Translations under genes and position numbers: made by a program
The notes under the pieces: model-generated
What the model was told of the DNA's origin: nothing
Seen by the model: the letters and a program-made list of their open reading frames with translations, nothing else
Database searches by the model: none
Shown here: positions 4,493 to 60,786 of the stretch, in pieces
Layout: each line of letters opens with the position of its first letter
How positions within the stretch are numbered: position 1 is the first letter of the stretch
NCBI GenBank assembly: GCA_034422735.1
Contig: DAOUJL010000079.1
Coordinates: 37,699 to 101,698 of the forward strand
Length of the DNA: 64,000 bases
Direction of reading: 5' to 3'
Origin: Dehalococcoidia bacterium
GTDB lineage: Bacteria > Chloroflexota > Dehalococcoidia > Lucifugimonadales > CATOSD01

Positions 4493-4619
4493 TCTGCTAT
4501 GTCCGCAGCGTACCTGTTGAGACTCCGAATTGTGCGCCATGCGATTCGTCCGGGCAAGGTCGTCCGCGTCGTCCGTTCGCCATATTGCCCGGCAACGTCC
4601 CCCGGACGCTCCAACGCAC

Positions 4620-5102
4620 ATCCCAACCGCACTCCCTCGCCCACACCCGGCTCAGTCGCTCCCCCGTACCCCGAAAATTCCGTAACTTTCCCGCGCCACG
4701 CGTTCCCCAGCCCTGCCTCTGCCAACCCCACGCACGCCCACCTCGTCCCCACGTCTGCGCCATTTCTCCCCACCAAACCGCCCCCATACCCACATTTTCA
4801 CTAAGGCCATTGCAATACACGTACATCCGTGCTAACCTCGGCCGTGTGAGGGACTGACCCCACGGCCCGCAAATCCTGCCCTCAATCGGGATTATGCCCC
4901 AGGCATCCGGCGGAACGCCCCTTCCAGGCGCCCTCCGGCGGCGAAGACACGGCCGGTCGGCCCGTCCGTCCCCTGTCCTCTTCTGCCACGCGGCGGGACA
5001 CTTTTGCTATGAATTGTCCCCTCCGGCATTACAGAACTGAGCAGGGCCACCGACGGTCCCAGCTACGAATCGCACAGAATGTCGCAGAATCTAACAGAAT
5101 TC
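4620..5102 (+). repeat. Divergent copy (A) of dispersed non-coding element: C-rich tract, promoter, CCCAGCTACG and 10-bp array
   Basis: CCCCGAAAATTCCGTAACTTTCCCGCGCCAC matches the tract near 39520-39555. CCCAGCTACG at 5058-5067. GAAT at 5067, 5077, 5087 and 5097. No terminal inverted repeats recognised. Confidence 0.7.
4810..4838 (+). promoter_or_regulatory. sigma70-like promoter inside element copy A
   Basis: TTGCAA-N17-TAACCT with an extended -10 TG; same position as the promoters in copies B, C and D. Confidence 0.5.
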
Positions 5103-5133
5103 GCCCTCCCGCTTTCCCAGCCACACCTGAATT

Positions 5134-5161
5134 CGTCATTCCCGCGAAAGCGGGAATCCAG
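5134..5161. repeat. CGTC-tagged REP-like palindrome (dRS3-like ATTCCC-N8-GGGAAT)
   Basis: CGTCATTCCCGCGAAAGCGGGAATCCAG is seen directly. Confidence 0.8.
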
Positions 5162-5306
5162 TGGAGGTTGGACACTCCGAAGCGAAGCCACCGGGTAATC
5201 TGACACAGCCTCAATGGCTGGGAGGAAGTGGCAGTGTAGCGGTGCAAAGGTCGGATTGGGTATATTGGATGAATACCGAGTGCAAGTGAGTATCTGAGGA
5301 GTCGGC

Positions 5307-7039: not shown

Positions 7040-7630
7040 ATGGGGATCATGAGCATAGCAGGCTTCTTCTTCCTCGTCATAGCGGCTCTGGTAACGACAC
7101 CCCTGGCGGCACTGCTCTGCGGAGCATTCGCATGGTGGCAGAAGAAGAGCATTTGGCGATTCGCGGCGGAGGGTGGTCTCAATGGCATCCTTGTACTGCC
7201 CTGGGTATTGGTGATGGTCAAGGCGAGAGGCCGTCCAGTCCCAATTGTCGCCTTGCTGATATACCTGCTCCCCTATGCCGTCTGGCTCGGCGTCTTTGCG
7301 GCTATCGCTCGTGGCATATTCTTTATATGGGAGTATACCCTCGGTACCGACACAGGATACGTGGCCCCCCAGGCCAACTTCGTCTCAGCAGCGCTGATGT
7401 CGATATTCCTTGGATGTTGCGCAGCCGTGAATGTCGGGACCCTGCTCCTCTCGGCAAGAGGCATATATAGACGTTACAGACAAGACAGAATCGACGGCCG
7501 ATTGCCAGAGTTGACGTACTACGCGCGGCCTTTCGTCTTCTCCTACATTTGGTTAGGTGCGCTGCTAGTACTTGGTCTTCTAGTAGCAGGGTACATGGTG
7601 AGCATTGGAGTGGACATACAAGGGTTCTAG
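7040..7630 (+). CDS. Hypothetical multi-pass membrane protein (lower GC)
   Basis: 196-aa ORF preceded by a GGAGA RBS, several hydrophobic segments, no recognisable family. Confidence 0.6.
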   Translation: MGIMSIAGFFFLVIAALVTTPLAALLCGAFAWWQKKSIWRFAAEGGLNGILVLPWVLVMVKARGRPVPIVALLIYLLPYAVWLGVFAAIARGIFFIWEYTLGTDTGYVAPQANFVSAALMSIFLGCCAAVNVGTLLLSARGIYRRYRQDRIDGRLPELTYYARPFVFSYIWLGALLVLGLLVAGYMVSIGVDIQGF

Positions 7631-32440: not shown

Positions 32441-33664
32441 TTGGACTTCACGTATCGTTACACGGATGAGCAGGAAGAGTTCAGGAGGGAAGTTCGCGAC
32501 TGGCTCGCGGCGAACGTCCCGGAGGACATGCGCGCGCCCGTCGACAGGCTCGACCTGAGCGACGAGCAGTACTGGTTCTGGCGTGACATGCACGTCACGC
32601 TGGCCGAGAAAGGTTGGCTCAACCCCACCTACCCCAAGGAGTACGGCGGCGGCGGCCTGAGCGGCGAGCACGAGACCATCCTGCTGGAGGAGTTCCGGCG
32701 CGCCCGCGTGGTGCCCAGCTTCACCAACACCCTCATCTACCCCACGCTGCTCGTGTGGGGCACCGAGGAGCAGAAGCAGCAGTTCCTGACCCCGATGCTC
32801 AAGGCCGAGAAGATCGCCTTCCAGCTATTCACCGAGCCGAACGCCGGCTCCGACCTGGCCTCCCTGCAGAGCAAGGCGGTGCGCGACGGCGACGACTGGA
32901 TTCTGAACGGCCAGAAGATATTCATCAGCGGCCATGGCGACCCGGATTGGCTGTACGGCCCGCTGATCACCGACCCCGACGCGCCCCGGCACCGGAACCT
33001 GGGCTACTTCATGGTGCCCTATCCCTCCGAGGGCCTGGACATGGAGCGCATGGGCCTGCTCACCGGCCACGACCAGAGCATGTTCTTCATGGACAACGTT
33101 CGCGTGCCCGGAGACCACCTCGTGGGCCAGGAAGGTCAGGGCTGGCAGGTGTCTCAGACCACGCTCGAGGTCGAGCACGGCGGACGCGGCATAGCCTTCC
33201 CGATCGACGAGTCGATGGATAACCTCCTCACCTACGTCAAGGGAACCAGGCACAACGGCGGCAGCCTCGGCGACGATCCGGTGGTCCAGCAGGACACCAT
33301 GGACGCGCTGCTCGAGACGCACGTGCACACCCTGCTGGCGCAGCGCAACTACTCGATGTACCAGGCGCGCCAGGAGATGAGCTACCACGGCTCGCAGACC
33401 TCGATGTTCCGCAAGGAGTACCACATGCGGAACGCCGACCGCGCCCGCAACGTGATGGGCATGTACTCGCTGCTCGGCGTCAACGAACCCCGCGCGCCCT
33501 TTAAGGGCGAGCCGGAGGTGTTCCAGCGCAGCAGCCTCACCGGGGCGCACCCCGGCGGCACCATCGAGATCCAAAAGGTCATCATGGCCCGCCGCATGGG
33601 CATCAGCCGCACCAGGGAGCGCGCGGCGCCCACGCCGTCCACCACGGGCGTCCGCGGCGTGTAG
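32441..33664 (+). CDS. Acyl-CoA dehydrogenase family protein (full length)
   Basis: TEPNAGSDLASL, NGQKIF, F.DNVRVP, GGTIEIQK. TTG start 6 nt after GAGGAGG. Confidence 0.92.
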   Translation: MDFTYRYTDEQEEFRREVRDWLAANVPEDMRAPVDRLDLSDEQYWFWRDMHVTLAEKGWLNPTYPKEYGGGGLSGEHETILLEEFRRARVVPSFTNTLIYPTLLVWGTEEQKQQFLTPMLKAEKIAFQLFTEPNAGSDLASLQSKAVRDGDDWILNGQKIFISGHGDPDWLYGPLITDPDAPRHRNLGYFMVPYPSEGLDMERMGLLTGHDQSMFFMDNVRVPGDHLVGQEGQGWQVSQTTLEVEHGGRGIAFPIDESMDNLLTYVKGTRHNGGSLGDDPVVQQDTMDALLETHVHTLLAQRNYSMYQARQEMSYHGSQTSMFRKEYHMRNADRARNVMGMYSLLGVNEPRAPFKGEPEVFQRSSLTGAHPGGTIEIQKVIMARRMGISRTRERAAPTPSTTGVRGV

Positions 33665-33816: not shown

Positions 33817-34635
33817 ATGGACTTCACCCACCCCTACAGCAAAGACCAGCAGGCCTTCCGCGTGGCCGTGCGCTCGTGGCTGGAGCACAACGCGCCCACC
33901 GGCCTGCGCATCCCGCCCGACGGCCGCCCGCTGGACGAGGAGACGCAGCGGGTGGTGAAGGACTTCCGCCGCCAACTCGGCGCGCAGGGCTGGCTCGCCC
34001 CGTCGTGGCCGCGCGAGTACGGCGGGGGCGCGATGAGTTCGGCGTTCGAGGCCATCATCATGGAGGAGATCCAGCGAATCGACCTGCCAAGCATGGGCGA
34101 CAACAACCGCTGGATACCTGCGATGATGGTGTGGGGCACCGAGGAGCAGAAGCGCCGCTACATAACCCCGGCGCTCAAGGGCGAGACCATCATCTGGCAG
34201 GCGTTCAACGAGCCGGACTCAGGCTCCGACCTGGCGGGCATCCGCACCACCGCCGTGCTCGAGGACGGGCAATACCACGTCAACGGGCGAAAGCACTACA
34301 TCACCGGGCGTTTCGATCCCGACTACCTCTGGACCCTGGCGGTCACCGACCCCGACCGCCCCCGCAGGCTAAACTTGGGTGTGTTCATGGTGGACGCGCG
34401 GTCGCCGGGCATCCGCATCGAGACCCAGCGGCTGCTCATGGGCAGCGAGCGCCGCGTCTACCTGGAGGACGTTGTGATCCCCGAGGACTGCCTGGTCGGC
34501 CTGCCCTACCAGGGCTGGGAGATAGCGCAGACCATCCTCGAAGGCGAGCGCGGCGGCTACACCCTGCGCGGCGACGAAAACGAGACGGCGGAGAGCATAG
34601 AACGCTTCCTCCGCGAGGAGCGCGAGCGGTCGTAA
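33817..34635 (+). CDS. Acyl-CoA dehydrogenase-like protein lacking the C-terminal helical domain (272 aa)
   Basis: NEPDSGSDLAGI, NGRKHY, LEGERGG, then a stop. AAGGAG RBS upstream. Confidence 0.85.
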   Translation: MDFTHPYSKDQQAFRVAVRSWLEHNAPTGLRIPPDGRPLDEETQRVVKDFRRQLGAQGWLAPSWPREYGGGAMSSAFEAIIMEEIQRIDLPSMGDNNRWIPAMMVWGTEEQKRRYITPALKGETIIWQAFNEPDSGSDLAGIRTTAVLEDGQYHVNGRKHYITGRFDPDYLWTLAVTDPDRPRRLNLGVFMVDARSPGIRIETQRLLMGSERRVYLEDVVIPEDCLVGLPYQGWEIAQTILEGERGGYTLRGDENETAESIERFLREERERS

Positions 34636-39327: not shown

Positions 39328-39418
39328 GGTGCCTAATCACCTCCAGCGGGTCTCGTGCCGTACAGAGGTTATCGCTATACGCAGCCGATGACAAGCCTGC
39401 TGTCCATTAGGAAAGCCA

Positions 39419-40096
39419 GGCCTTTTCATTCCCCGTCGCGGCAACCTGCCGGCGGGCGAGGGCAACGGCGTCACTTCCGCTTGTCACCACTCCCCCAACA
39501 CCAACCCATTCGCGCCCACGTATCCCGAAAAAAGCGTCACTTTCCCGCGCCACCCGTTCCCATCCGTGCGCCATCCATTCTCACCCGCGTTCTACCAGTT
39601 CCCGTCCGTGCGCCATTTCTCCCCACAAATTCGAACTGCCCCTACAATCTCGCCAACCCTATTGATTCTACAGCACGCACGTGCTATTTTCTACGTAGCA
39701 GTCGCCGCGGCGCCAGTTGTGGAGTAGGGGCGGAGCCTGCCCTGAACTTGCCGAATGGGTTTGAAACCCGCCCGTTCCCCGCCCAAGATCACTGTCGCGT
39801 TCTGCGACATTTGGCGCAATGCGCGTGACGAACCTTAACAACTTGGCTCACAAGAAGTGACAATAGAATCGGACCGCCCAGCTACGGAATGGGCAGAATT
39901 GTGCAGAACTGAGCAGATTTTTCCGAGAGCCGCGCCCAAAGCCCTTCCGCTTGTCCCCTCTCCCTCGATGGGAGAGGGCTAGAGCCTGCCCCGTACTTGA
40001 TGCGGGGGCGAGGGTGAAGACACGACCACAGCCGACGAATCTAAAGCCTCCATCCCGACCCTCTCTCCTGACCGGAGAGGGCAGAATGAAAAGGCT
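39419..40096 (+). mobile_element. MITE-like non-autonomous element, copy B
   Basis: Terminal inverted repeats GCCTTTTCATTC (39420-39431) and GAATGAAAAGGC (40084-40095). The body aligns by eye over more than 500 bp with the reverse complement of 60130-60751. Confidence 0.75.
39662..39690 (+). promoter_or_regulatory. sigma70-like promoter inside element copy B
   Basis: TTGATT-N17-TATTTT with an extended -10 TG. Confidence 0.5.
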
Positions 40097-40183
40097 CTGG
40101 GTTGCGGGCGGCGTGCTTGCACTCCGTGACAGGCGTGGACTAGAATCGAGCCGAATCTTTGGAACAGTTTTGAAGAGGATGGA

Positions 40184-40963
40184 ATGAGTAAACTGATCGA
40201 CATGCTGGAGAGGGCGTCGTCTCCCTCGCAGACCCCGATGGGATTCGGCCCCGCCTCGCGCCGCGCCGACGAGAGACCGGCGCTCGCGGTCGTTGGCCGC
40301 GTGCTCGCTTCCGACCTGGAGGCAGATTCGGGCCTGGTGCGGACGGACGTTGAAGCGGTGCTGGTGGAGGTGCACGCGAGCGCCCGCAAGGAGTCGCTCG
40401 ACGCGGCATTCGACGCCCTGGATGGCAAGCTGTGGGGCCTGAGCGTAGACGAGCGCGTAGGCTTGGAGATCGTGGAGGCCGCCAGGGAGCGAGGCTGCGA
40501 TTTCGTGGCGTTGGACACTCTCGGCGCGCCCGCGTCGCTGCTGAGCGAAGAAGACCTGGGCAAGCTGGTGACGGTGGAGGGCGACCTGGACGAGCGCACC
40601 GCGGGGGCGATTCGCAGCCTCTCGTTCGACGGCGCGCTGTACCATCCGCCGGAAAGCCTGTCGCCTCTCAGCCTGGGGCGTCTGATCGCCGTCCAGCGCG
40701 CACACCGGCTGCTGGGCAACCCGTTCCTGGTCAGGGCCTACGGCGAGCTGTCGAAGCCTGACCTGAAGGAGCTTCGAGACGCGGGCATAGCGGGCATCGT
40801 GGTGGAGCTTTCCCAGTCAGATGCGATCGCCGCCATGCGGGAGAGCATTCGCAACCTGCCCAGAAGCAGGCCAAGGAAGAACCAGAGGCGAAACGTCGCG
40901 CCGCTAGTGCCCTCCGTACAGCCGGGACAAGTAGAGGCCGACGACTACGACGACGAGGAGTGA
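40184..40963 (+). CDS. Hypothetical protein (possible degenerate aldolase/citrate-lyase-like TIM barrel)
   Basis: 259 aa with an AAGGAGG-like RBS and an acidic tail; the fold assignment is only an impression. Confidence 0.65.
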   Translation: MSKLIDMLERASSPSQTPMGFGPASRRADERPALAVVGRVLASDLEADSGLVRTDVEAVLVEVHASARKESLDAAFDALDGKLWGLSVDERVGLEIVEAARERGCDFVALDTLGAPASLLSEEDLGKLVTVEGDLDERTAGAIRSLSFDGALYHPPESLSPLSLGRLIAVQRAHRLLGNPFLVRAYGELSKPDLKELRDAGIAGIVVELSQSDAIAAMRESIRNLPRSRPRKNQRRNVAPLVPSVQPGQVEADDYDDEE

Positions 40964-49624: not shown

Positions 49625-50326
49625 ATGGTAGACATCAGGCAGCTATTCAATCTACAAGAACTCGACTGGGAGATCGCCTCCAGGGCCAAAACGCTGGAGG
49701 AGACCAGGTTTCGACTGAACGACGTGTCCGCCATCGAGGCGATGCGGCGCCGGCAGGCCCTGATCGGCAGCCAACTGGACGAAGCCCGCACCGAGAGGCG
49801 AAAGCGCGAGACGGCAGTGAGCGGATTGGAGCAGCGGCTGGAGAATCTGGATCGCAGGTTGTACGGTGGCTTCGTCACCAACCCCCGCGAACTTGAGGCC
49901 AGCGAGGAGGAGCGGGCCTTTCTGCAACAGCAGAGGTCGGAGGAGGAAGACGGCCTGCTCGAGGCACTGGTGCTCTCCGAGGAGTTGGAGGAGGGGCTGT
50001 CGGCGGCGGGCGAGCGCGTAGCTGCGATGGAGTCGGCCCGCGACGCGGAGCGGCCCGGTCTGCTGGAACGCGAGAGCCGGCTCGCAGCCGAGCTCGAGGA
50101 ACTGCGCCGGGCGCGCGAAGAGGCTGCGCCGCAACTGCCGGCGGGCGCACTTTCAACTTACGAGTCGCTGCTGAGAAGCAAGAACGGCCACGCGGTCGCG
50201 CGGGTCGAGCGGTCGGTGTGCCAGGGCTGCCGGATGACGCTGCCGTCGTTGGAGGTGCAGCGGGCCAAGTCTCCCACGCGAGTTGCTCTGTGCAGCAACT
50301 GTGGCAGAATCCTGTACGTGGTGTGA
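49625..50326 (+). CDS. Coiled-coil protein with C4 zinc ribbon (DUF164/zf-RING_7 family)
   Basis: LFNLQELD N-terminus, long heptad region, CQGC...CSNCGRILY. Confidence 0.9.
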   Translation: MVDIRQLFNLQELDWEIASRAKTLEETRFRLNDVSAIEAMRRRQALIGSQLDEARTERRKRETAVSGLEQRLENLDRRLYGGFVTNPRELEASEEERAFLQQQRSEEEDGLLEALVLSEELEEGLSAAGERVAAMESARDAERPGLLERESRLAAELEELRRAREEAAPQLPAGALSTYESLLRSKNGHAVARVERSVCQGCRMTLPSLEVQRAKSPTRVALCSNCGRILYVV

Positions 50327-50333
50327 TCCGAGC

Positions 50334-51674
50334 ATGAGAGCTATCGGCTATTTTCGTCCCAAAGAGGGGCCAAAGTACGTGGAGGCCTTCGAGGAGGCCT
50401 TCCTGGACTACTGCGACCGTAACGGTCACCAGCCGGTGGAGACATTCTACGACTACATCGATGGGGGCGGCGGCCGGCTGCCCAACTATCGGGCGATGGT
50501 CGAGTTCATGCGCGAGAACACCGGCGGCTACCTCGTGGTGGTGCCGGACGCCACGCACTTGGGAGGCGAACTGGAAGCCGTGGCGCGCGCCGTCGTCGAG
50601 TTGGAAGCGCTGGGCGGCAAGGTGACGTGCGACGACGACGATATGCCCGATCCACTGCAGAACAGCTTCCTGACACTGGACGTGAAGGGCGTTTCGCGCA
50701 CGCGGAGCACTCGCATCCAGACGTCCATGCGCCGCCGCGCCATGCAGGGCCTGGGGCTGGGAAAGCCGCCCTACGGCTACCGCATCGGCTCGAAGGGAAC
50801 GCTGGAGGTGGTGCCGGAAGAGGTCCCGGTGGTGGAGCTGATCTTCCGCCTGCGCACGAAAGAAGAGCTGGGAGTCCGGCTCATCGCGCGCCACCTGAAC
50901 GAGCGGGGCATACCCACGCGGCGCGGCGGTAAGTGGAACATGGTCACCATCCGCGACATTCTGCGAAACTCTACCTACATCGGCACCTACCGCAGGTTCG
51001 ACATGAGCGTCCCGAACAGTCACGAGGCCATAATTCCGGGAGAGGTCTTCCGTGCGGCGCAGGAGGTCACGAGGGCGCGCCGACCGGTGGGACGCGTAGT
51101 CAACGCCCAGCCGTTTCTGCTGTCGGGCTTGGTGGTCTGCGGCTACTGCGACAATAAGATGATGGGCGTGACCCGCCGCCAGAGTTGGAAGCGCAAGGAC
51201 GGGCGCCGGGCACGCGGAGTCTATCGCTACTACCAATGCCAGACCCGAAACAACCAGAGCCTTTGCGGCTACCACACCTGGCGCGCCTCCAGGCTGGAGG
51301 GGACGGCGATGGGGCAGCTCAAGCAGGCCCTACGCTCCAGGGAATTGGAAGCGCGGTTGGACCCGGAGGCGGCCAAAAGCCGGCAGGAACAGGCCAAAGC
51401 CGAGTGGGAAACCCGCGTGCGGAATGCCGAAAGGCGCTTTGTGCAGAGCATGAGGCAGGCGGCCAGAGGCAAGCTCACCACCGAGCGGCTGGGCGAATAC
51501 CTCGATGACCTGGACAGCGTGAGGACCGCCGCGAAGAACGCGGATCGGCCCCTGGACGTCGACAAGACGCTGGCAAACTGGGATTCGCTGGATCTGGGCG
51601 ACCAGCAGCGCTTCCTGAACGAGCACGTGGCCCGCATAGTCGTCAAGGACGACTCCGTGGAGGTGGCGGTCTAG
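50334..51674 (+). CDS. Large serine recombinase homologue with degenerate catalytic domain
   Basis: Recombinase domain (PPYGY, IARHLN, W....IRDIL.N, HEAII) and zinc ribbon (CGYC, YYQC...C) are intact. N-terminal GYFRPK replaces GYARVS. Confidence 0.88.
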   Translation: MRAIGYFRPKEGPKYVEAFEEAFLDYCDRNGHQPVETFYDYIDGGGGRLPNYRAMVEFMRENTGGYLVVVPDATHLGGELEAVARAVVELEALGGKVTCDDDDMPDPLQNSFLTLDVKGVSRTRSTRIQTSMRRRAMQGLGLGKPPYGYRIGSKGTLEVVPEEVPVVELIFRLRTKEELGVRLIARHLNERGIPTRRGGKWNMVTIRDILRNSTYIGTYRRFDMSVPNSHEAIIPGEVFRAAQEVTRARRPVGRVVNAQPFLLSGLVVCGYCDNKMMGVTRRQSWKRKDGRRARGVYRYYQCQTRNNQSLCGYHTWRASRLEGTAMGQLKQALRSRELEARLDPEAAKSRQEQAKAEWETRVRNAERRFVQSMRQAARGKLTTERLGEYLDDLDSVRTAAKNADRPLDVDKTLANWDSLDLGDQQRFLNEHVARIVVKDDSVEVAV

Positions 51675-52203: not shown

Positions 52204-52577
52204 GTCGAGGTGGCCGGGCGGCCGCCCTGGTCGCGCCCACGGGCGCGGGCGAGGGAGGAAAGTCCGAGCTCCACAGGGTAAGGATGCCCGCTAACGGCGG
52301 GGCGGGGCGACTCGACGGAAAGCGCCACAGAAACATGCCGCCGCCTTCGCAACGAGGGCGGTAAGGGTGAAAAGGTGAGGTAAGAGCTCACCGCCTTGGC
52401 GGTAACGTCAAGGGCTAGGCAAGCCCCATCCGGAGCAAGGCCAAATAGGGGGAACACTGGCTTACCCGGCCATTCTCCGGGTTGGCCGCACGACCCAACC
52501 GGCAACGATTGGGCTAGATAGATGGCTGCCGTCCCGGTGTTCCGGGATACAGAACTCGGCTTACAGGCCGCCTCGAC
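52204..52577 (+). ncRNA. rnpB: RNase P RNA (type A)
   Basis: GAGGAAAGTCC near the 5' end and ACAGAACTCGGCTTAC near the 3' end; P1 pairing GTCGAGG/CCTCGAC; CCACAGAAA and GGTAAGAG conserved blocks. Confidence 0.97.
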
Positions 52578-52598
52578 CAAGCCACATCCCAGGACTCT

Positions 52599-60039: not shown

Positions 60040-60192
60040 GTGTGATGCACTCCCGTGAATGGCCCCGGCGGGGCTGCGGCGATTCTAGCACGGGGCGGGT
60101 AGAGACGCTAGTGATGGGCGCCCAGCGCGGGGCCTTTCCATTCTCCTCCCCCATCTCGGTCAGGGGAGAGGGTTAGGATGGGGGGCCTTATC

Positions 60193-60220
60193 AGGTTCCC
60201 CGGCTGCGCTCGGAATGAGA
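60193..60220 (-). repeat. CGTC/TGTC-type REP-like sequence nested in copy C
   Basis: Minus strand TCTCATTCCGAGCGCAGCCGGGGAACCT. Confidence 0.5.
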
Positions 60221-60478
60221 ACATCAGGGTCTCTGGGCGCGGCTCTCCGAAAAATCTGCTCAATTCTGCTACATTCTGCACATTCCGTAGCTGGGCGGCC
60301 CGATGTTCTTGTCACTTCTTGTGAGCCAAGTTGTTAAGGTTCGTCACGAGCATTGCGCAGAATGTCACAGAACGCGACCCGTTCGGCAAGCTCAGGGCAG
60401 GCTCCGTTCGGCCGAGGGCGGGCGGGTTTCAAACTTGCCCCCACTCCACAACCGGCGGCCGCAGTGCCTATGCTGTAG

Positions 60479-60507
60479 AAAATAGCACGTGTGTGCTGTA
60501 GAATCAA
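60479..60507 (-). promoter_or_regulatory. sigma70-like promoter inside element copy C, facing the corrinoid protein gene
   Basis: Minus strand TTGATT-N17-TATTTT. Confidence 0.5.
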
Positions 60508-60786
60508 GAGGGTTGGCGAAATTGCCGGATGGGGGCGAATTTGTGGGGAGAAATTGCGCACGAATGGGAACTGGTAGAACGTGGGTGAGAATGGCTGGAG
60601 CACGGATGGGAACGGGTGGCGCGGGAAAGTGACGCTTTTTTCGGGGTACGTGGGCGCGAATGAGTTGGAGTTGGGGGAGAGGGGACAAGCGGAAGGGACG
60701 CGGTTACCCTCACCCGCCGGCAGCTTGCCGCGACGGAGAATGAAAAGGCCCTGTGCCCAGCCCAGCGCCGCACCAGCATGGCCGCG

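Follow-up and report, generated by a model that had tools for sequence, protein, structure and literature searches.

Correia elements measure about 100-155 bp and carry promoters at or near their ends. Elements of the ISAs1 family have direct repeats of 8-10 bp and a single reading frame of about 370-380 aa with the domains DDE_Tnp_1_assoc and DDE_Tnp_1. The Correia elements of Neisseria are treated together with ERIC and REPIN as promoter-bearing miniature inverted-repeat transposable elements (MITEs) (PMC3575422), and the putative mobile promoters (Matus-Garcia, Nijveen and van Passel 2012; commentary PMC3575422) are a class delimited solely by similarity over 50-100 nt, with a means of movement that is unknown. 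Insertion sequences (IS) of the ISAs1 family are recognised by inverted repeats that begin with CAGGG and measure 14-22 bp, together with a 10-bp direct repeat (PMC11946415); in ISArsp11, the left inverted repeat (IRL) is CAGGGCTGATGCAAAGTCG and the direct repeat GGAACAGCAC (PMC6305408). Here, we analysed a 64-kb stretch of the genome of a Dehalococcoidia bacterium (contig DAOUJL010000079.1, positions 37,699 to 101,698), which is referred to as the window and within which positions are counted unless another locus is named. Two repeats of about 650 bp in this window, copies B and C, are real non-autonomous transposons, very probably MITEs of the ISAs1 type, and their interior is a conserved non-coding cassette with a predicted promoter.

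Like ISAs1 (H-repeat or YbfD-YdcC) elements, these repeats have an 18-19-bp CAGGG repeat and a 9-10-bp duplication, and 1.2-kb elements bounded by an identical repeat encode DDE_Tnp_1_assoc and DDE_Tnp_1, but B and C lack the transposase and carry about 500 bp of unrelated cargo. They resemble Correia, ERIC and REPIN (PMC3575422) in being non-autonomous and intergenic, in their inverted ends and in placing putative promoters beside unrelated genes, whereas their length (550-680 bp), complete central promoter, long fixed downstream module and transposase family set them apart from Correia. They also share with the putative mobile promoters, as outlined in the commentary (PMC3575422), the occurrence of near-alike non-coding DNA upstream of non-homologous genes, both inside one genome and among related taxa, and mostly without an Rfam match; they differ from the sequences outlined there in that the vehicle could be identified (ISAs1-type ends, duplication, empty site) and in being five to ten times longer. 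In the mosaic non-autonomous transposons that Tn3-derived TIMEs produce (PMC4133298), miniature inverted-repeat ends can likewise enclose and move unrelated passenger DNA, although with a Tn3 rather than an ISAs1 transposase, and for B and C capture would be deduced from the distribution of the cargo. A search of the literature for MITEs in Dehalococcoidia returned no paper.

The initial annotation of the window had proposed that B and C are homologous copies in opposite orientation, and this was confirmed over nearly their whole length by an alignment with a mean column identity of 84%, by inverted-repeat arms of 293 nt (88% identity) and 151 nt (89%), and by blastn (83% across 536 nt, E 4e-155); the homology of the two copies is put at 83-88%. 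In addition to these two copies, both real, a third and more diverged one, copy A, was found. The element strand is + for B and A and - for C. The right 230 nt of C showed zero differences from an independent short-read contig (L171), which breaks within the repeat, as assemblies do at repeats. The inverted ends of B and C are also real and reach slightly beyond the limits first drawn for them. The whole elements, their ends and their flanks are as follows.

39417-40099, + strand: copy B, whole element, 683 bp
39417-39434, + strand: B left terminal inverted repeat (TIR), ISAs1-type, CAGGCCTTTTCATTCCCC; the same repeat bounds the 1.2-kb transposase elements
40081-40099, - strand: B right TIR, ISAs1-type, GCAGAATGAAAAGGCTCTG, reverse complement CAGAGCCTTTTCATTCTGC
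39435-39482, + strand: B left shell with subterminal hairpin CCGTCGCGGCAACCTGCCGGCGGG, common only to copies with this inverted repeat (C, L025, L037)
40059-40081: hairpin before the B right repeat, CCCTCTCTCC..GGAGAGGG
39408-39416, no strand: B left target-site duplication remnant TAGGAAAGC, 8/9 against GAGGAAAGC
60128-60753, - strand: copy C, whole element, 626 bp, with inverted repeats at 60735-60753 and 60128-60146
60754-60762, no strand: C target-site duplication, left on the element strand, GGCTGGGCA (reverse complement), 7/9 against 60119-60127
60119-60127, no strand: C target-site duplication, right on the element strand, CGCTGGGCG (reverse complement), 7/9

Read on the element strand, the ends of C are CAGGGCCTTTTCATTCTCC and CGGGGCCTTTCCATTCTCC, which match at 17/19 positions, and those of B (18-19 nt) agree except for one indel and two mismatches, the left end reading CAGG-CC with one G lost from CAGGG; ends of this type are also written CAGGGYCTTTTCATT. 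The subterminal hairpin reported as common to B and C is indeed shared and corresponds to the left-shell hairpin, in a shell whose identity drops to just 55% in L050, a distant orthologue. Target-site duplications had been thought absent, but one is present at C and another at the B locus, the latter seen by way of the orthologous right flank: in the two orthologues L049 and L050, GAGGAAAGC comes immediately after the right inverted repeat, and the window's own right flank has diverged. A 148-bp element with the same ends in L023, a Dehalococcoidia metagenome-assembled genome (MAG), is flanked by a perfect 10-bp duplication (GGACGCGAAA, 10/10). With a CAGGG start, a length of 18-19 bp and duplications of 9-10 bp, the ends carry the published signature of ISAs1, a catalogued family, and the earlier statement that they match no IS family is therefore superseded. 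What had been called an undescribed MITE-like element is a MITE, as indicated by its TIRs, its many copies and its lack of a conserved open reading frame (ORF), but the claim of an unclassifiable element falls. A coding element was rejected, as the ORFs over the repeat differ between B and C and no conservation is seen among short ORFs of either strand.

The proposal that copy C is an insertion was borne out by orthologous loci. The spacer from MtaA to the corrinoid-protein gene measures 124 bp in three relatives (L038, L039 and L040) versus 747 bp in the window, with MtaA 97% identical between the window and these relatives, and the empty site lacks exactly the unit that runs from inverted repeat to inverted repeat; C thus inserted as a whole unit. 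The B locus differs, since the element is present in the same intergenic region of all three relatives checked (L045, L049, L050), and empty sites were accordingly found for C but not for B, which is an old insertion retained at one locus.

Elements with the same ends that encode a transposase were found in metagenomes. A scan with CAGGGYCTTTTCATTNTC matched at least 120 loci, and among the 120 listed, inverted pairs were 1.17-1.27 kb apart in nine and 122-173 bp apart in seven; duplications flanking these shorter mini-MITEs were 9/10 (L066) and 9/9 (L082 and L094). The transposase was matched by tblastn in ten metagenome loci, two long elements scanned for domains (L079 and L090) encode DDE_Tnp_1_assoc and DDE_Tnp_1, and the joined query retrieved intact 378-aa homologues encoded by single ORFs and named in their source 'predicted transposase YbfD/YdcC'. 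An identical 18-bp inverted repeat bounds these transposase-encoding elements, which have sequence in common with B and C only in that repeat. The core of the B/C interior was present in 0 of the 120 ISAs1-end loci listed, and is therefore cargo specific to the Dehalococcoidia elements rather than part of the IS. An all-against-all blastp of the ORFs of 36 loci that carry the core motif revealed no recurrent neighbouring transposase or recombinase, the matches being only spurious repeat translations and common metabolic families, such as luciferase-like oxidoreductases.

The cargo has a constant architecture, which is given below for B and, more briefly, for C and A.

39483-39655, + strand: B C-rich module (nhmmer E 3e-55), including the invariant ACTTTCCCGCGCCACCCGTTCCC at 39539-39561
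39662-39690, + strand: B predicted internal sigma70-type promoter, with -35 TTGATT at 39662-39667, a 17-nt spacer, TG at 39682-39683 and -10 TATTTT at 39685-39690
39695-39788, + strand: B variable leader stretch, whose length and content vary by copy and which contains REP-like hairpins (GGAGCCTGCCCTGAACTTGCCGAATGGG; GGGTTTGAAACCC)
39789-39924, + strand: B 3' module of constant length (about 135 nt), with a TTCTGC unit, CAGCTACG at 39879-39886 and CAGAAT/CAGAAC/CAGATT at 39894-39919
39927-40043, + strand: about 117 bp of the B right shell, present in B and L045 and absent from L049/L050
about 60520-60686, 60479-60507 and 60248-60381, - strand: C-rich module, promoter and 3' module of copy C
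about 4560-5211, + strand: copy A, a diverged member whose right end is unlike that of B/C
4616-4853, + strand: C-rich module and promoter of copy A, the promoter (TTGCAA-N17-TAACCT) at 4810-4838
4970-5105, + strand: 3' module of copy A
5146-5172: REP hairpin on the right side of copy A
5189-5211: right TIR1 (second inverted-repeat type) of copy A; the left TIR1 is missing

The motif ACTTTCCCGCGCCACNCGTTCCC, common to A, B and C, occurs at 36 loci; these are spread over eight MAGs, each of them labelled Dehalococcoidia, and a single 3.3-Mb chromosome has as many as 11. The family comprises about 40 copies in nine related genomes, the window's own included; neither the 5' nor the 3' motif was found in viral contigs. 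The 5' module (C-rich tract and promoter) gave 42 profile matches, in 38 loci and the three window copies, and the 3' module, which travels with it, gave 37 nhmmer matches, nearly all of full length and with essentially no indels. Between the two modules lies a stretch of 60-250 nt in which each copy has different small hairpin repeats nested. The C-rich strand noted earlier is evident directly in the sequence: across the family this 190-nt tract consists, on average, of 50% C and 15% G, and those of A, B and C, with skews of 0.55-0.61 versus a window mean of -0.03 (standard deviation 0.12), are the most extreme C/G-skew segments of the 64 kb. Such a long C-rich, G-poor tract on the would-be transcribed strand, about five standard deviations from the window mean, resembles the rut tracts of Rho-dependent terminators in composition only, and the genes upstream of A and B are divergent, so that nothing obvious reads into it. 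The 19-bp near-repeat GTTCCCRTCCGTGCGCCAT at 39556 and 39598 and the phased array (CAGAAT at 39894, CAGAAC at 39904, CAGATT at 39914; period exactly 10) are likewise present as first described, and every copy of the family has three to five CAGAAY units at exact 10-bp spacing. A direct repeat of CTTCCGCTTGTC had also been reported in B; it does occur at 39465 and 39945, but the second unit belongs to the stretch of about 117 bp absent from L049/L050, most of which (from about 39945) is a nested REP-like insertion. The first 20 nt or so of that stretch (CGAGAGCCGCGCCCAAAGCCC) are also found in C, so this part belongs to the element.

The ends around the core are far more variable. The CAGGG... 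inverted repeat encloses it only in B, C and the orthologous pair L025/L037, and the same core lies between another inverted repeat, GAGCCTGTKTCAGATTACCAGGTG, in L005 and L016/L024; most copies have no recognisable inverted repeat, and the left core border is ragged. This other repeat marks a second family of miniature elements with inverted repeats of about 30-40 bp (GAGCCTGTKTCAGATTACCAGGTGCGCCC), found around the core in L005 (1371-2092), L016 and L024, as the only content of a 95-bp element in L026 (5430-5530), and as the right end kept by copy A; no clear target duplication was seen for elements of this type. Their GAG-starting termini recall what we take to be the pattern of the IS1031 group of IS5, a lead rather than a test. 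In the simplest reading, the cassette was enclosed at least once by miniature elements of each kind, and old copies retain the promoter and 3' module, whereas their ends are lost to decay and nested insertion. That the cassette instead enters such elements using its own mechanism was considered and finds no support in sharp borders. A tRNA 3' end, suggested by the left flank of some copies (GGTTCGAA...ACCA-like), was also dismissed, as ARAGORN finds no tRNA there and the sequence corresponds to TIR1. Small REP-like hairpin families litter these genomes and nest in the element (GGAGCCTGCCCTGARCTTGCCGAAYGGG; CCCCTCTCCCTCGATGGGAGAGGG then TAG..GGGTGAGGGTGA; GTCATTCCCGCGAAAGCGGGAATCCAG; GGGGCGGGTTTCAAACCCGCCC), with examples in the window at 39731-39760, 60377-60406, 39957-40015 and 5146-5172. 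A short diverged cassette is present in L024 (7190-7440 and 7580-7653), with a promoter and a variant array of ATGGTGCAAA units at 10-bp phase; a tRNA-Gly(TCC) gene follows after about 140 nt.

The internal promoter proposed in the initial annotation holds a conserved position throughout the family. When 25 copies were anchored on the -10, the consensus read cTTGaa, 17 nt (ending ACAtcCGTGC) and then TAtc.T; the TTG, the TG separated by one base from the -10 hexamer, and the TA...T are invariant or nearly so at fixed spacing, and the spacer contains the inverted repeat GCAC-N4-GTGC. Judged by its sequence, the conserved motif is a predicted sigma70-type promoter of the extended -10 class. The coding region that follows the cassette has the same orientation in 29 cases and the opposite one in two, or roughly 21 versus 2-3 after collapsing orthologues, whereas upstream genes lie either way. 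These downstream genes are mutually unrelated and encode, for example, ribosomal protein S6, DXS, riboflavin synthase, peptide deformylase, RNase Y, MgtE, ETF, an MFS transporter, gamma-glutamyltranspeptidase, a Mo-oxidoreductase and a corrinoid protein. In the second L021 copy (7060-7330), the end of the cassette is separated from the mgtE start codon by just 26 nt that include an AGGAG, which leaves no room for another promoter, so that the cassette must be the promoter and leader of mgtE unless transcription comes from further upstream. It is somewhat probable that the family acts as a transposon-spread promoter and leader cassette.

Taken as a whole, the explanation that we consider likely is that of an ISAs1-type MITE with a promoter/leader cassette. 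An ISAs1-family DDE transposase, supplied in trans, would recognise the 18-19-bp CAGGG... inverted repeats and insert the unit with a 9-10-bp target duplication, and the interior would be a passenger, a lineage-specific non-coding cassette, rather than a deleted transposase gene. Four parts make up this cassette: about 170-190 nt rich in C and poor in G, a predicted sigma70-type promoter whose -10 is extended and whose spacer contains GCAC-N4-GTGC, an insertion-tolerant stretch, and the 135-nt module, constant in length, in which CAGAAT units recur at 10-bp phase. Firing toward the downstream gene, the cassette would serve as an extra, portable promoter followed by a long leader, transcription starting at the promoter and reaching into that gene, and the C-rich tract might stop incoming transcripts in a Rho-dependent way.

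Several observations weigh against this explanation. The automatic promoter scan did not list the forward promoter of B (8/12, below threshold) and listed instead a reverse-strand site specific to the B subtype, so that the assignment of the transcribed strand rests on family-wide conservation. Downstream genes often have a promoter of their own; the native promoter TGCTAGAAT of the corrinoid-protein gene, for example, is present at both the empty and the filled site, and the cassette is therefore not required for downstream expression. At the orthologous loci L002/L015/L028, identity is 89%, compared with 88-90% at 4-fold degenerate sites, which amounts to no excess conservation, and one cassette is found within two kinds of inverted repeat. 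With regard to the vehicle, the autonomous transposase that shares the TIRs was found in the metagenomic 1.2-kb elements but not in the window or in about 0.4 Mb of Dehalococcoidia DNA (L002-L050); when it was sought on the MAG chromosomes, the best 120 matches were all to short contigs. In all ten partner elements of about 1.2 kb (L075, L079, L087, L090, L098, L101, L112, L120, L143 and L157), moreover, the transposase is split into two frames, which could reflect decay or a programmed frameshift; the split falls at varying points, about residues 95-245, with an offset most often equivalent to -1.

How the cassette has evolved at orthologous loci bears on whether the repeat is purely selfish, with the conserved blocks kept by descent, gene conversion or a need of transposition and the orientation bias reflecting which insertions are tolerated. 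Between the window and L049/L050, identity is 73-75% at the 4-fold degenerate sites of the flanking genes but 92-97% in the promoter (92-100% among orthologous copies) and 90-91% in the next 230 nt (39695-39925), which contain the 3' module, compared with 55-87% in the shells; the C-rich tract is largely replaced in L050 (55%). The 3' module is 99% identical between L016 and L024, versus 89% at 4-fold sites, and 98.5% between L025 and L037, versus 71% at only 31 such sites. These comparisons support constraint, read from sequence divergence, on the promoter and 3' module at several loci, not all. A selfish repeat would agree with the silent-site pace of the L002 group, with the ragged left border and the many nested small repeats, and with downstream genes that are functionally unrelated and retain their own promoters. 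It fits poorly, on the other hand, with the retention of B across genomes so diverged at silent sites while its shells and inverted repeats have dropped to 55-70% and its promoter and 3' module remain at 90-97%, with transposition ends that are the least conserved part and are lost in most copies, and with invariant positions that are those defining the promoter, and we regard it as unlikely.

A similarly unlikely alternative is that the cassette is a gene family for a discrete trans-acting non-coding RNA of about 230-330 nt, running from the promoter to the CAGAUUU end, which the MITE only spreads. The conserved promoter, the constraint at several loci and a 3' module that is fixed at 135 nt and never interrupted while the neighbouring stretch takes insertions would all suit such a gene. 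Minimum free energy folds of three copies close the module by a long-range helix that pairs UUCUGC-type units at its start with GCAGAA-type units at its end, and one position of this helix is compensatory among B-type copies, being C-G in L025/L037/L029, U-A in C and the second L021 copy, and U.G in L012. Against an RNA gene, however, the fold z-scores of the three copies are unremarkable (-0.4, -1.5 and 0.0), and RNAalifold yields a weak consensus (-3 to -11 kcal/mol), the paired columns being almost all invariant and covariation almost nil, whether all copies, typical copies only or B-type copies only are considered. The two subfamilies would need helices shifted by one 10-nt repeat unit, and Rfam gave no match on B or A beyond chance level, at the gathering threshold or at E up to 10, with no HEARO among the matches. 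Nor is there a conserved intrinsic terminator: the candidate at CAGAUUUUU was rejected because most copies have either no U-run or one of just UUU, and because the helix next to it is not the same in the two subfamilies. A trans-acting RNA gene, finally, does not predict the 29:2 orientation bias. Relics of IS200/IS605-type PATEs or of guide RNAs (omega or bridge RNA) have subterminal hairpins but neither inverted repeats nor a duplication, and are associated with tnpA, tnpB or an IS110 recombinase. Such a relic was rejected as well, given the inverted repeats and duplications, the lack of a recurrent neighbouring ORF in 36 loci and the lack of an Rfam match. The 3' module thus appears to be conserved mainly as sequence, which may suit a leader or an array of protein-binding sites better than an RNA with a compact fold.

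Conservation of sequence rather than base-pairing leads to the further idea that the conserved blocks (the phased CAGAAT units, the inverted TTCTGC units and GCAC-N4-GTGC) are a protein-binding DNA array instead of a promoter plus leader, for a regulator such as a direct-repeat-binding response regulator or for a nucleoid protein, that wires many genes to one factor. The strict 10-bp phase of the CAGAAY units in every copy, the position of the module, always upstream of a gene and in one orientation, and the inverted repeat within the promoter spacer are all consistent with such an array, but no candidate for the binding protein emerged, array and start codon lie anywhere between 14 and >250 nt apart, which is hard to fit to one fixed activation geometry, and the downstream genes have no common theme; as an account of the blocks on its own, it is rather improbable. 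Inspection by eye suggested no convincing match to a sigma54 promoter, dif, parS, a DnaA box or a LexA box. Lastly, the view that B and C are not transposons at all, with ends that are inverted by chance or of REP type and copies made by segmental duplication or recombination, could appeal to the many members without recognisable inverted repeats and to the transposase missing from the window and the Dehalococcoidia loci searched, but it is already contradicted by an empty site that lacks precisely the repeat-to-repeat unit and by partner elements whose transposase is bounded by the identical 18-bp repeat, and the duplications, perfect or near-perfect in L023, L066, L082 and L094 and still recognisable at C (7/9) and B (8/9), leave it highly implausible.

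Some other features of the window were recorded along the way. The gene downstream of B (40184-40963) encodes a 259-aa protein without a Pfam match and evolves much faster than its neighbours, with 80% nucleotide identity to L050 compared with 88-94% for neighbouring genes. The sole Rfam match elsewhere in the window is a bacterial class A RNase P RNA (52206-52579, 304 bits), which adjoins an ORF at about 50283-51674 that corresponds, by synteny with L039, to a large serine recombinase (Recombinase and Zn_ribbon_recom). A direct repeat of 147 nt with 73% identity (32745-32891 and 34121-34267, 1376 nt apart) probably reflects paralogous genes.

An ISAs1-derived MITE is, as far as its ends are concerned, ordinary, and its recognition gives annotators a name for such repeats. 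Less ordinary is the cargo of roughly 500 bp, with what reads as a complete and strongly conserved promoter. It recurs about a dozen times per genome in a little-known lineage of soils and sediments, points at the next gene in nearly all cases and, at several loci, is under a constraint that outlasts the transposon ends. It is conceivable, as a tentative extension of the promoter/leader explanation, that the cassette is a domesticated regulatory unit made up of a promoter, an operator-like inverted repeat, a phased protein-binding array or leader RNA and possibly a Rho-type stop, carried by at least two unrelated systems (with ISAs1-type and GAGCCTG...-type ends), and that it ties dozens of housekeeping genes of an uncultured Dehalococcoidia clade (such as rpsF, dxs, ribE, def, rny and mgtE) to one signal; transposition would in effect have assembled a regulon. 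Should the promoter be active, the family would be a clear natural case of promoters that were spread and then retained, with a vehicle that, unlike that of most 'mobile promoters', is identified, and it would bear on the prediction of operons and of gene expression in uncultured genomes.

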